From a virus (taxonomy: Duplodnaviria > Heunggongvirae > Uroviricota > Caudoviricetes), in IMG/VR virus record IMGVR_UViG_2526164601_000042: a DNA stretch of 39,549 bases; one strand, 5' to 3'. The position numbers were made by a program. Below are positions 9,001-15,000 of the stretch, piece by piece (the first letter of the stretch is position 1; each line of letters opens with the position of its first letter).

Positions 9001-12000
9001 GATTCAATGTCGCCTTAGTTGTATGACAAAGCGCGGTTGCTTGCTATGAAGTTACATTCTGATATTCTAGAGTAATTCCGTGCACATTTATGATAATAAC
9101 TGGTTATCTTTAACATAAAAAAGAAGAGCGTTACTTATATGAATCTACCATTTTCATTTATTTTAGCATTTTTCTGTATAATTGGTGCATTAGTCGCCTT
9201 CGGCTTACCAATATTTAAATTTTTAGATGATGACATTCAGCAAAATCGTGCTAACGGTCTTGATGGAATGCGTTTTTATCTTGCATCATTCGTAATACTT
9301 CATCATATGGATTGCTCCTATTCATATTTTAAAACCGGGGAATGGACCCCAATATCCCAGTGGCTGTTAACTATGGGAAAATATGGTGTGGCATTATTCT
9401 TCATGACAACAGCCTACTTATTTTGGGGGAAGATTAGGGACAAGAAAAATATTGATTGGGTAACCCTATATCAAAAAAGATTCCTTAGAATTGCCCCATT
9501 AGCTTTCTTTTGTTCATTCATGGGTATTTCTATACTTTTCATTTTCACGGAAAAAACCACATTAACTTTAACCACTATATCCAATATACTGTCCTGGTTT
9601 GATGGTAGCTTGTGGGATAATAAACCACCAGTAACGACTTTTCAGACTCCATTCATTGTGTTAGCCGGAGTTACGTGGACATTGAAATGGGAGTGGATAT
9701 TTTATTTTTCTCTTCCATTGCTATTTATTCTCAATAAAAAACCAATGGAACTGACCATTATTCTTTTTGCATTTTCGTTTTATTTATTGCCGTCCTTTAC
9801 GAATACTGCATATCTTTGGTCATATTTTTTTGCGGGGATGCTCTGCAGGGAGTTGAAAGAAAGAATTATCCTGTCCAAGACTAATGCAAATTATATTTTG
9901 ATCGCTGCCATACTGCTAACCTTTCTGTCAGCCCCTACATTATATAGCCCACCGGAGACTGCTTTCCTTGCTGTTATTTTCTTTTGCATCATATCTGGAG
10001 CCGAACTCTTTGGAGCACTAACAACCAAAGCAGCCAAAAGATTAGGCGCGATTAGCTACAGTTTGTATCTCACACAGGGATTAGTACTTTTCCCAGTCTA
10101 TAACTATCTGAAATCCGCAAAAATGATGACTACTGGCCCCTTATTACTTTCGATACTTGTTATGACCTTCTTTGGCATTTGCCTGTTATCTACTTTCACT
10201 TATCATTTTATAGAATTACCGTTTATCAAAAAAATAAACAATAAATCATCAGCCGGATTGCATAAAATTTAAAAAAATATGAATATATGCTTGTCTATAT
10301 CAACTACTTCCCTCCGGACGAGTTAAGCGAGTTGGCTCGTTGGTTTTTCCCGATACTGATGTCAGGGAGACAATCAGTGCTCAACACCAACGTCCACAAG
10401 CATGAGAATGAACAGATAAGCAGTACTGTCCAGGAAATGCTTGAAGAAACGGGGTTCTGGTTAGTCAGTGAGTAAAATTTTAAATATCCGCCACAGTTAC
10501 GTTTTGATGATTCTGTGGCGAATATTTATTTTCGATAATATCACTCCTCTGGTTTGCCAGGCCATTTGACATCAGGCGCTGTAGAAAAATCAACTGCATA
10601 AAGAGCGTCAAGATAATCCAGCCATAGATTATATTGCGCCAGTTCGTCGCCTTTCAAACGCCCAATAGCCGCCTTTCCTGGCCACTGCTTACTATTTATA
10701 AACGCGTTAGCCCTGTCGATGCGGGATTGTTTTTCCGCTTCAGCGGCACCAACATTAGCAGCATATTCTGCAGCGGTATCAGTTACCCATTTTTCACCAT
10801 CCCACTTATCATATGGTGTTGATGGAGCAATTCTGGTGTAGCCATCTCGAATCTGACCAATATAATCAATTGTCGCAGACTTTCCATCAGCGGTTGAATA
10901 AACCGTCATTCCCCGATGATCTTCTTCCTGTTTCCAGTCGGTGCCAGTGAACAGAGGGACCTTTCCGGCAACGACCTCGCCCGGGTCAATATCGGTGGAG
11001 TTGCCAGGCATACTCACGCCGATATGGATATATTCATCTGACCAGCCGGTATACTCTCCCGTCACCGCATCATAATAAAAACAGCGAACATCACCCGGCT
11101 CTGTCGCCAGTCCGTCTGCATCAAAGACAGGTTTCATTACTTTGCCCTCACAAGAAGATTAAACGAGATATTACGTGGGCGGTTTTCTGCTGCCACAGGT
11201 ACGCCAGCATTTGCAGCATTAAAGAAAGCGAACTGAGCTATTGTCGTCTGATTGCCATCAACACCTAAATTTACAATGTTCTGAGCGCCACCGACAGTGA
11301 ACACTCCGTCAGCGACGGTATTCCCCACCATGGTAATAAACCCCAGACTGCCAGTAATATTTCGGATTGCATCACCCTGCGGACTGAGCAATGAACGTCC
11401 GCTATCGATACCACGTCCGTCATCCCACACGCGCAGAAACTCCCCCCTGGCTTCTGTCAGCCTGAGTCCGGGAAAAACCTTAGCCAGTTTCGGATAAGTC
11501 GCTGCCGAAAACGTCGCACCGTTAAATTTCAGAAAAACCATATCTGACCATTCATCCATGACCGTATTTGGCATTGCAGCTGATGGCCAGAAGAACGGGA
11601 TCCCGACTGGCGGAGCGCCCGCGCTCAAACCAAGATAGGCGAGAAGACCAGCAACATCCTTTCCACTCAAATTAGTCAGCGTATTGTCCAGCGGTTGTTT
11701 ACCTGCCAGTGCATTAAGCATTGTCGTGGCAAAGTTTGGGTCATTCCCCAGCGCCGCCGCCAGTTCGTTCAGTGTATCCAGTGCCGCGGGTGCAGAACCC
11801 ACCATTGCTGCAATCGCTGATTTCACAAAAGCTGTAGTGGCAATCTGTGTATTGTTGACCGACTGTGCCGCAGTAGGTGCTGTTGGCGTTCCGGTGAGTG
11901 TCGGACTCGACAGCGGCGCTTTTTGTGCCAGCGCATTGTTAATGGTGGTACTGAAATTCGGATCATTGTTAATGGCTGCGGCTATTTCTTTCAGCGTGTC

Positions 12001-15000
12001 CAGCGTGGCTGGCGCACCATTAATAAGGGCCGTGAGTGCTGCCTGAACAAACGCGGTGGTCGCAAGCTGCGTGGTATTATTCCCCGCCGCTGGCGTTGGC
12101 GCTTTGGGGGTTCCGGTAAACGTTGGACTTTCTTTGGGTGCATACTGTGAATGCGGGTCCAGTGCGGCAAGATGTTTTGCCATCAGGTCATCCACGTACA
12201 CCTTCAGCTCCAGTGCCTTGTCATCCACATACTTGCGGGTTGCCAGCACTACAGCAGGATCGATTTTCAGGGTGATATTGTCCGTACTGCTGGTAATCAG
12301 CACCATGCGCACGGTCTGGGTGCGCCCGCTGCCTTCAGCCAGTTGCGGCTTATAGCTTTCCGGGCAGTTGCCCACGGCAATCAATGCCCCGGACTCATCA
12401 AACAGGCCCACTTCACGTATCCACCAACCGCCCTCGTTTTCAGGGATCACCTGTTCAGCAATAATCTGGCTGCTGTTCTGCGGGTCGATATAAAGCATAT
12501 TCAGCGCAGCCCGGCGTTTCTCATTTACCAGTGCCGTCTGCTTTGCGTCCGGCGTTGGCAATACTCCGCCGCCATCGCCCACCGCCATATGGGTAATTTT
12601 TAGCGGCACACCGAGCGCGGCGGCGCTGGCAAGTTTCGCCGCACCAATATCCGTCAGCAGGGTATAAAATTTTGTGCTCATGGATTCACTCTCATTGTGT
12701 CAATAACATGGACCGCCCCGCCTTCATGCGCGGTGCCACCGGAAATAATCGTTTCGTTGATATACGGATAGATCGTGATTTCTTCGCCAAGATAGCTGGC
12801 GGCTCCCACCCAATGCGGGCCGCTGGTCTGCAGATTGATGGACATGCCGATCATGTGGCGGCTACATGGTTTGGCATCGCTTATCAGTCGCTCAAGTTCC
12901 AGATAGGTATCTTCAGTGATGCCCTGGTCCTGCACGCCGATATCCAGGCGAAACGTGCCCGGTGTTTCTCCGGTCTGCCACCACTCAATAATGCGGATCA
13001 GGAATCCGAACGGTTCCACCACCCGCCGCACGGCACTGGTGGTTCCTTTATGCTGATGAATATAAAAAGCATCCTTCACTACCTGGCGTTTGACGCTTTC
13101 TGTCCAGCCCTCGTCCCAGCGATCCACAGAGAACGCCCAGGCGAGATAAGGCAGGAAGCTGACCGGACAGGTAGCCGGATTCCACAAGTCACGCAGCGGC
13201 ACCTGCAAATCAGAAATCCTGCTACAGGTTTGCGCCAGTCGGCGCTCCAGTGGTGTTGAACCCGGTGGCAGCAGACTATTCATCCGTTCCTCCGTTGGTT
13301 ACGCTCCACTGCGTACATGATGCCGCCTGTGTTTTGTTCAGGACCACATCCGCCAGAGGAGAAGCCAGCTCCACACGCTGCACCCCCTCAACATGCAGGG
13401 CGGCAAAGATGGCGCTACGGCGAATATCCCGACCAAGACGCGTCTGACTGGCGATGTACTTCTGCAGGCTGGCTTTTGCCGCTGCCATTACCGGCTCTGC
13501 TTCCGGTCCAGGATAGAGAAAAATGGTGGCATCCACGCGATACGGGATGATTTCTGCGCTGCGAACCGTAAGACGGTCAGCCACCGGGCGGACGTTCTCA
13601 CTGTTCAGAGCTTTTTCCACCACGTCCAGCAGGTCTTTTTCTGCAGTTCCATCGCCTTCGCGGCTAAGGACAGTCAGCACCACCTCTGCAGGTGCCGGGC
13701 TGGTTGCACTGGCATCCGCCACCCGACCGTCGGCGCTTCGGGCATGAAATTCATAAGCTGCAGTTGGCCCCGCAACAGAAAGCCCTTCAAAGGCTGCAGG
13801 CACACGCAGGCGCAACGCTTCATCGCTTTCCATCACAGCTGCAACGGGCGGCACAGCATCATTATCAGCAGGCGTCACCGTCAGGCGTGTCACGTTGTAG
13901 TTGGCAGCGAGCTGGTCAAGATCGCCGCCCATCGCGTAAGCCACCATCACCGCCTGCGCGGCTTCGTTAATGCGCTGGCGCAGAAGCAACTCACGGTAAG
14001 CGTTCTCCTGCAACAATTTAGTGGCGGGTTCAGATTCCAGTTCCAGCGTGCGGATCACTGCTTCCTGCTCATCTTTCGGATGAAGCGCCACAAATTCTGC
14101 CTTGCGTTCGGCAAGCAGCGTCTCAAAGTCCGGCACATCCACAATCTGCGGTGCAGGCAACTGCGAAAGGTCAATCACTGCCATTCTCTGCTCCTGTTGA
14201 TACGGAAAGGGACACAGGCACACCGTTATTCCGCCGCCCGGTCAGCTCCACCACCATTGAACCGTCAAAATTGCTGTTGATGGTGATGGAATCCAGCGTC
14301 AACCGTGGCTCCCAGCGACTCAGCGCCACATACACTGCCGACATGACCTGCAGGCGTAATGCCGGATTTTGTGGCTGATCTATCAGTGCCGACAGCAGGG
14401 AACCATATTCCCGGCGGGCAATACGGCTACCCTGCGGTGTCAGCAGAATGTCCCGCACCGACTGGCGCAGATGATCAATATCAGTAATGACTTTGCCGCT
14501 GGTATTGTTCATCCCGCTATAAAGCGTCATACCGGGCCTCCGGTTGTATCGCCGCCTTTCAGGACGCCAGTATGCTGATGCGCATCAACCACGATCCCGT
14601 TAGAACTCATCGCTCCGCCGCCCTGGGTAACGCCACCATTGATCACCACTTCGCTGTTAATGCGCGTGCGGTCAGCCTCCAGTACAAACTCACTGGTTTT
14701 CATGGTGATGTTGTCAGCAGCCTCAATGACCATTGATTTGATGCCCCTGACATACCAGCGCCCGGTGGCGGGTTCGTATTCAAACCAGCCACCGTCAGGA
14801 TGTTCTGTCACGCAGGCGTCCGCCGACGTCGACGGTGGTGCGAACTGATTCGAATAGACAGCGGGCAGCGCAAAGGCGGTTTCCAGATTGCCGCCCAGAC
14901 TCAGCAGCACCACCTGCTCACCTTCCGATGGTCGCCACCATGTACGGGCATTCCCGGCACGCAGCGTCAGCCAGCTGATCCAGTTGGTTTCAAGCTCGCC

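Follow-up and report, generated by a model that had tools for sequence, protein, structure and literature searches.

P2-type tail fibres and other fibres with repeats

Among the described fibres, the tail fibre gpH of phage P2 (NP_046775, 669 amino acids, aa) is the natural comparison for the product of tail-fibre gene H, located in a 39,549-nucleotide (nt) stretch of Caudoviricetes DNA (IMG/VR record IMGVR_UViG_2526164601_000042; the whole stretch is hereafter the window). H carries two consecutive related 74-aa units, which probably arose long ago when a composite shaft module was duplicated in tandem and in frame, and which would act as a length-setting spacer of the fibre. P2 gpH and H have in common the N-terminal domain PF12571, the gene order J-I-H-G and 54% identity over aa 1-332 (BLASTP, E=2e-90). 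P2 gpH holds, however, a single copy of the unit (aa 257-329, of the unit-2 type and aligned with unit 2 of H), whereas two copies of a different, shorter repeat (...TLAATPKAVKA...) stand where H has unit 1, and the C-termini of the two proteins are unrelated.

Parts of the same unit are met in fibres of other kinds. The side tail fibre gene stf/orf-314 of lambda matches unit residues 14-71 at 72% identity, and the lambdoid Stf of E. coli NDM6 has the joint ALAGKQPLDNTLTNLSGKDVAGLLAYLGLGE (93% nt identity) directly before its own C-terminal domain and chaperone; these fibres differ from H by another N-terminal attachment domain and shaft, and the NDM6 Stf is devoid of a complete unit. The tail half of the unit, APxxLDTLNELAAALGxDPNFATT..., is common to Bxb1 gp4 (9D93) and actinophage minor tail proteins, a stretch of it being present in 376 Mycobacterium and 126 Gordonia phage records, but these are siphovirus fibres with another attachment domain, only the tail sub-module and no tandem 74-aa array. 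The family PF03406 ('Phage tail fibre repeat', Phage_fiber_2) is likewise a short shaft repeat and co-occurs with the module in protein P0032, while its profile matches neither H (whole protein, E<=0.01) nor either unit (E<=10). In the R-type pyocin fibres, repeated structural elements arise by duplication and let the fibre length adjust (Buth et al. 2018, PMC6116203); those are very short helix-plus-turn motifs seen only in the structure, not 74-aa sequence units, and the likeness to H that is drawn here is one of theme.

The tandem repeat of gene H

The gene and its two units are placed in the window as follows.

11137-12681, minus strand: tail-fibre gene H of the P2 gpH type, 514 aa (open reading frame, ORF; Pfam PF12571; match to WP_000104798.1; homology with P2 gpH)
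11905-12126, minus strand: repeat unit 1, aa 186-259 (self-comparison; unit hidden Markov model, HMM, score 129.8, E=2.9e-40)
11683-11904, minus strand: repeat unit 2, aa 260-333 (self-comparison; unit HMM score 129.1, E=4.7e-40; P2 alignment)

The units adjoin with no gap or spacer at a period of exactly 74 codons (222 nt), and 46 of the 74 residues (62%) are identical between them. The BLOSUM62 local score of unit 1 against unit 2 is 239, the corresponding value for 2000 composition-preserving shuffles being 37.0 +/- 6.7 with a maximum of 69 (z=30); across the whole H protein, all 70 high-scoring off-diagonal windows of 20 aa fall on the offset of 74. The repeat is therefore real and far beyond chance. 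That two Ala/Thr/Pro-rich stretches merely resemble each other by composition, with no common origin, might be argued from the bias of the region to Ala, Thr, Asn and Pro and from the silence of the DNA repeat finders, but the shuffle scores, the sole high offset and the match of both units to the same HMM at E about 1e-40 refute this reading, and its probability is practically nil.

The first-pass annotation, made from the sequence alone, had described two consecutive related units in H, and both were recovered together with the peptides quoted there: PTFTGTPKAPT (aa 186-196, nt 12094-12126), NALAQK (aa 249-254), PTLTGTPTAPT (aa 260-270) and NALAGK (aa 323-328). Its range, 11686-12126 (aa 186-332), gives the place of the repeat correctly, but the length of about 73 codons has to be corrected to 74. 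Comparison of H with itself and with its relatives, as proposed there, reveals significant internal similarity and a number of units that varies among the related fibres, from 0 to 4 in the gpH-like ones and up to 9 elsewhere.

The nucleotide-level visibility that had also been claimed is true in a restricted sense. A repeat spaced by 222 nt was reported neither by Tandem Repeats Finder nor by a seed-based repeat finder, because the DNA is too diverged for them. A script then used for the in-register DNA test gave an identity of 133/222 (60%), other offsets giving 25.2 +/- 3.6% (z=9.7). By codon position the identity is 69/81/30% (first/second/third), the same codon is used at only 14 of the 46 conserved residues, the proportion of synonymous differences is saturated (pS=0.77, with pN=0.26 for the nonsynonymous ones), and the longest in-register exact run between the two units is 8 nt. 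The DNA signal is thus a by-product of amino-acid conservation; it follows that the duplication happened long ago, that purifying selection on the protein maintains both copies, and that the repeat is not a fresh DNA repeat.

Identity of the gene

The name tail fibre gene H, used in the first-pass annotation, is justified, and the gene can be assigned to the P2 gpH type, because of the PF12571 domain, the synteny with J, I and G and the 54% identity with P2 gpH. The profile PF12571 is matched end to end by H aa 1-150 (profile 1-150 of 150, E=2.3e-65, 219.6 bits with a cut-off of 23), and the genes for baseplate J, baseplate I, fibre H and fibre assembly G follow one another on the minus strand, H being situated between gpI and the tail-fibre assembly gene. 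The protein is 100% identical to WP_000104798.1, annotated as 'phage tail protein', from the P2-like prophage adjoining ssrA in E. coli F2_407_2_2, and the same J-I-H-G order is found in the RefSeq annotation of this identical prophage.

12232-12681, minus strand: N-terminal baseplate-attachment domain of H, aa 1-150 (Pfam PF12571 Phage_tail_fib)
12127-12231, minus strand: connector, aa 151-185, YVDDKALELKVYVDDLMAKHLAALDPHSQYAPKES (between the Pfam domain and unit 1; conserved in relatives)
10541-11137, minus strand: tail-fibre assembly (chaperone) gene, directly downstream of H (Pfam PF02413 Caudo_TAP, E=5.5e-27; RefSeq annotation)
12678-13283, minus strand: Tail_P2_I (gpI) gene (Pfam family match)
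13276-14223, minus strand: Baseplate_J gene (Pfam family match)

Anatomy and distribution of the unit

Each unit is composed of two sub-modules, a head of 27 aa rich in Pro, Thr and Gly (xTGxPxAPTxxxxxNxTQxATTAFV) and a tail of 47 aa (APxxLDTLxExAAAxxNDPNFxTTxxNALAxKxPLxx).

12046-12126, minus strand: head of unit 1, aa 186-212 (heads and tails occur separately in relatives)
11905-12045, minus strand: tail of unit 1, aa 213-259 (likewise)
11824-11904, minus strand: head of unit 2, aa 260-286 (unit comparison)
11683-11823, minus strand: tail of unit 2, aa 287-333 (unit comparison)

Heads and tails are also found singly in other fibres, the head alone in unrelated ones. In nine gpH-like proteins, the order is head-head-tail (hht), the first unit being without 28 tail residues, and in one protein it is head-tail-head (hth). 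The 28-codon stretch absent from the head-head-tail ('1.5-unit') relatives is flanked by a motif ATTAA(T/C), related to the exact 12-nt direct repeat CATTGTTAATGG that occurs within unit 1 at 11934-11945 and 11964-11975 (AINN/TINN codons, 30 nt apart), and the gap could be a microhomology deletion. A search of PDB sequences with the unit profile matched the unit tail to residues 198-247 of the Bxb1 tail collar fibre gp4 (PDB 9D93, E=2.9e-14), and the unit head matches two adjacent copies in the cyanophage A4 fibre gp24 (9K09).

The 74-aa module is very common: with a threshold of E<=0.001 it turns up in 24,091 cluster representatives (clusters at 50% identity), and it also occurs in 32 PHROG families and 768 phage records, with lambda stf and hundreds of actinophage minor tail proteins among the latter. 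No model covering the unit was found in the searched copies of Pfam-A and NCBIfam, so that a profile of the module would improve fibre annotation. In the protein P0122 (1039 aa), nine units stand strictly in tandem at a 74-aa spacing, some pairs being 96% identical, which points to a recent block duplication. Looser arrangements occur as well. The very long protein P0121 (6556 aa) holds 11 copies about 220-280 aa apart, and in two H ORFs of Pectobacterium sp. B2J-2 (L025 and L026, 809 and 818 aa) the two units are about 125 residues apart with another domain between them; both these ORFs also hold a repeated 'KGQRVYSPNNKPT...' element, so that the repeat is of a larger, composite kind.

Such a distribution is one ground of the main rival explanation, that units 1 and 2 came from different fibre genes and were joined in register by recombination at conserved motifs, as is seen in other places of tail-fibre genes, an origin we regard as unlikely. 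A module spread over at least 32 PHROG families, with heads and tails that occur independently, would offer material for mosaic assembly; unit 2 is the common type, being that of the single unit of P2, whereas the tail of unit 1, INGAPATLDTLKEIAAAINNDPNFSTTINN, belongs to a different type; a different repeat type fills the place of unit 1 in P2; and minority breakpoints of similarity with E. coli genomes lie at the unit borders, at gene nt 756 (some 7 residues short of the end of unit 1) and gene nt 984 (some 5 residues short of that of unit 2). However, the exact spacer-free 74-codon register and the arrays of 3, 4 and 9 units are most simply made by duplication, and the units diverged too long ago for a trace in the DNA to tell the two origins apart.

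Number of units and exchange between them

For a census of unit number, loci encoding the gpH N-terminal domain were collected from GTDB species genomes and IMG/VR and their ORFs were scanned with the unit HMM; the counts come from these locus ORFs, as a listing of homologous proteins gave only fragments of <=307 aa that are unfit for counting. The 124 distinct complete gpH-like ORFs (h, head; t, tail) comprise htht (59), no unit (46), hht (9), ht (7), hththt (2) and hth (1). Two units, at the same positions as in H of the window, are thus the commonest state, and the unit-less ORFs belong mostly to Xenorhabdus and Photorhabdus. A gpH-like protein with four tandem units, the first at aa 186, was met in the wider library (P0132). 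Among the IMG/VR relatives, which number more than 590, only two have three units, the loci L081 and L110. When 5426 complete E. coli genomes were probed for three-unit alleles, the best 60 rows held only joined pieces of two-unit genes; the probe being not exhaustive, the absence of such an allele from these genomes is only suggested.

The middle unit of L081 is chimeric, with a unit-2-type head and a unit-1-type tail: 24 of the 25 informative sites at or before unit nt 72 resemble unit 3 (unit-2 type), and 53 of the 55 from nt 75 on resemble unit 1 (Fisher p=4.8e-17). The same breakpoint is found in L110 (p=2e-11), the two genes differing at 76/1737 nt. The crossover falls in the best-conserved stretch of the unit, in the ATTAFV codons of the core TQ(I/L)ATTAFV, and the corresponding positions in the window may be placed by register.

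12052-12055, minus strand: position that would match the three-unit crossover, unit 1 nt 72-75, ATTAFV codons (L081/L110 breakpoint, transferred by register)
11830-11833, minus strand: its putative partner in unit 2 (transferred by register)

The chimera is what a single in-register unequal exchange of unit 2 with unit 1 would be expected to yield; the allele has diverged since, and its L081 and L110 forms descend from one event. The exact pattern of the chimeric junction is present in four IMG/VR contigs, of which only these two carry a three-unit allele; the other two, considered as candidates, proved to be unrelated fibres with only the head sub-module in common. The one-unit proteins L007, L005, L010 and L015, from four other genera, are built the other way round, the head being of the unit-1 type, the tail of the unit-2 type and the switch near residues 25-30; this reciprocal make-up would fit a deletion product.

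It had been suggested in the first-pass annotation that such repeats are recombination substrates. In favour of an active DNA-level substrate, in which frequent unequal crossing-over alters the fibre length and so the host range, one may count the existence of unit-number variants, a three-unit chimera of the kind expected from unequal crossing-over, the reciprocal pattern of the one-unit proteins, and the units of P0122 (up to 96% identical), so that in other fibres the module does act like a repeat amplified not long ago. Against it, efficient RecA-dependent exchange in E. coli requires some 20-30 bp without mismatch, whereas in-register exact runs do not exceed 8 nt between the units of H, 12 nt within a gene in the set of 81 related two-unit genes and 16 nt for any pair of alleles. 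Synonymous sites are saturated, and homogenisation between units was not found in the 81 two-unit genes, in which units of one gene are 58-65% identical and orthologous units have medians of 93% and 95%. There are, moreover, only two three-unit contigs, both from one event, and the modules of host range vary downstream of the repeat and not inside it. Frequent crossing-over is therefore very unlikely. The variable number and the chimeric middle unit uphold a part of the suggestion, against which stand the short runs and the absence of concerted evolution; exchange between units appears rare, and the units seem to be poor, rarely used substrates, because the exact runs are short, concerted evolution is not seen and only 2 of the more than 590 relatives have three units.

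The conserved joint, the C-terminus and host range

Beyond unit 2 the protein passes through a short joint into a variable C-terminal part.

11626-11682, minus strand: conserved joint, aa 334-352, TLTNLSGKDVAGLLAYLGL, the boundary of constant shaft and variable C-terminus (E. coli similarity breakpoint; C-terminal families; Stf match)
11137-11625, minus strand: putative C-terminal receptor-binding region, aa 353-514 and stop (match to phiTE 9CUY; rare at the DNA level in E. coli)

The C-terminus of H matches the short tail fibre of phiTE (PDB 9CUY, aa 356-512, E=5.6e-15) and, weakly, the tip of T4 gp37 (2XGF); against the phage tail collar family PF07484 it reaches 14.6 bits (E=0.033), under the cut-off of 24 bits. 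In the 5426 E. coli genomes, 1269 match H and only 3 of them are covered at >=80%, the similarity to most ending at gene nt 1056 (aa 352); at the DNA level, the C-terminus is common to only 3 of the genomes. Besides the two breakpoints at the unit borders, a further minority one (nt 464) lies where the N-terminal domain ends. Over aa 1-352, the 59 distinct two-unit proteins make up a single cluster, with a median identity of 97% to H of the window; from aa 353 onward, past the conserved joint TLTNLSGKDVAGLL(A/T)YLGL, they fall into 28 clusters. Homologous C-terminal domains (32-59% identity) are carried on shafts of 1, 2 and 3 units.

About a dozen IMG/VR contigs (loci L088-L158) end 1052-1074 nt past the H start codon, at the joint of constant and variable parts, which suggests that assemblies break there since several prophages have the same constant part and different downstream parts.

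Receptor specificity is in all likelihood exchanged downstream of the repeat, which itself belongs to the constant shaft, because aa 1-352 make up one cluster and 28 C-terminal families follow past the joint. The further claim of the first-pass annotation, that a change in the number of repeats alters host range, is not borne out: the C-terminal families vary after aa 352 with the repeats constant, and homologous C-terminal domains are found on one to three units. A bolder proposal can be formulated, in which the core TQ(I/L)ATTAFV would be a preferred in-register exchange point and the array would measure out fibre length in discrete steps, like a ruler (gpH-like fibres, 1-4 units; others, up to 9), which selection would tune to the thickness of the O-antigen or capsule of the host surface, unit number being a host-range determinant independent of the tip; we consider it quite unlikely.

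Origin and role of the two units

The order of parts in H is the attachment domain, connector, unit 1, unit 2, the 19-aa joint and the variable C-terminal domain, followed by the chaperone gene. The explanation that we hold to be likely is that an ancient in-frame tandem duplication of the composite shaft module in a fibre of the P2 gpH type produced the two units. They would function as rigid spacers in a fibre that, by likeness to related fibres, is presumably a trimer, and their number would set the distance from the baseplate to the receptor-binding tip. A unit was gained at least once by an in-register unequal exchange inside the TQ(I/L)ATTAFV codons, as the comparison of alleles shows; gain and loss are probably rare events of an illegitimate or short-homology type and, as there are only short exact matches between the copies, the two-unit form should be stable. 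The host range would change mainly by a swap of everything past the joint (aa 334-352) with the chaperone gene, which would be expected to move together with the C-terminal domain.

Several points weigh against this explanation in whole or in part. The data cannot separate duplication in situ from the joining of units of different fibres. The one-unit 'reciprocal' forms, which are from other genera, could be ancestral rather than deletion products. As to the spacer role, the solved structures match half-units only, and the match to FibU of 80alpha was rejected as a structural guide, the matching part of the chain being not modelled in the density. The AlphaFold2 monomer model of aa 150-360 is unreliable (mean predicted local distance difference test, pLDDT, 52; predicted template-modelling score, pTM, 0.17); as a hint only, it has a coil head and then three short helices per unit, so that a helical tail may be put forward with low confidence. 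The model being unreliable, we infer rather than observe both the rigid-spacer role and the helical tail.

Duplication of fibre repeats as a means to adjust length is a theme already established (Buth et al. 2018, PMC6116203), of which H is an ordinary example, and the current picture of tail-fibre evolution is unaltered. The chimeric three-unit allele is a clean natural example of a change in fibre length. In practice the gain is modest. Natural points for in-register splicing are offered by the borders of the units and by the joint at aa 334-352, whether chimeric P2-type or pyocin-like fibres are to be engineered or the fibre length varied.

Other observations in the window

A 120-aa Ala/Ser-rich ORF at 11684-12046 (plus strand) is antisense to the repeat region, and the rest of H is covered by other antisense ORFs; they are most likely by-products of the composition of the coding strand.

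The tmRNA gene ssrA, with the tag peptide ANDENYALAA, is located at 698-1060 (plus strand). Since the P2-like prophage of the matching E. coli genome begins directly after this gene, the prophage appears to sit at the ssrA locus.

A membrane acyltransferase gene at 9139-10272 (plus strand; Pfam PF01757 Acyl_transf_3, E=1.9e-26; 'acyltransferase family protein' in RefSeq) is convergent to the fibre genes and is flanked by the genes for tail-fibre assembly and for the tail sheath, at the position where P2 holds the non-essential lysogenic-conversion gene fun(Z). It may be a cargo gene for the modification of surface polysaccharides, placed beside the receptor-binding genes.

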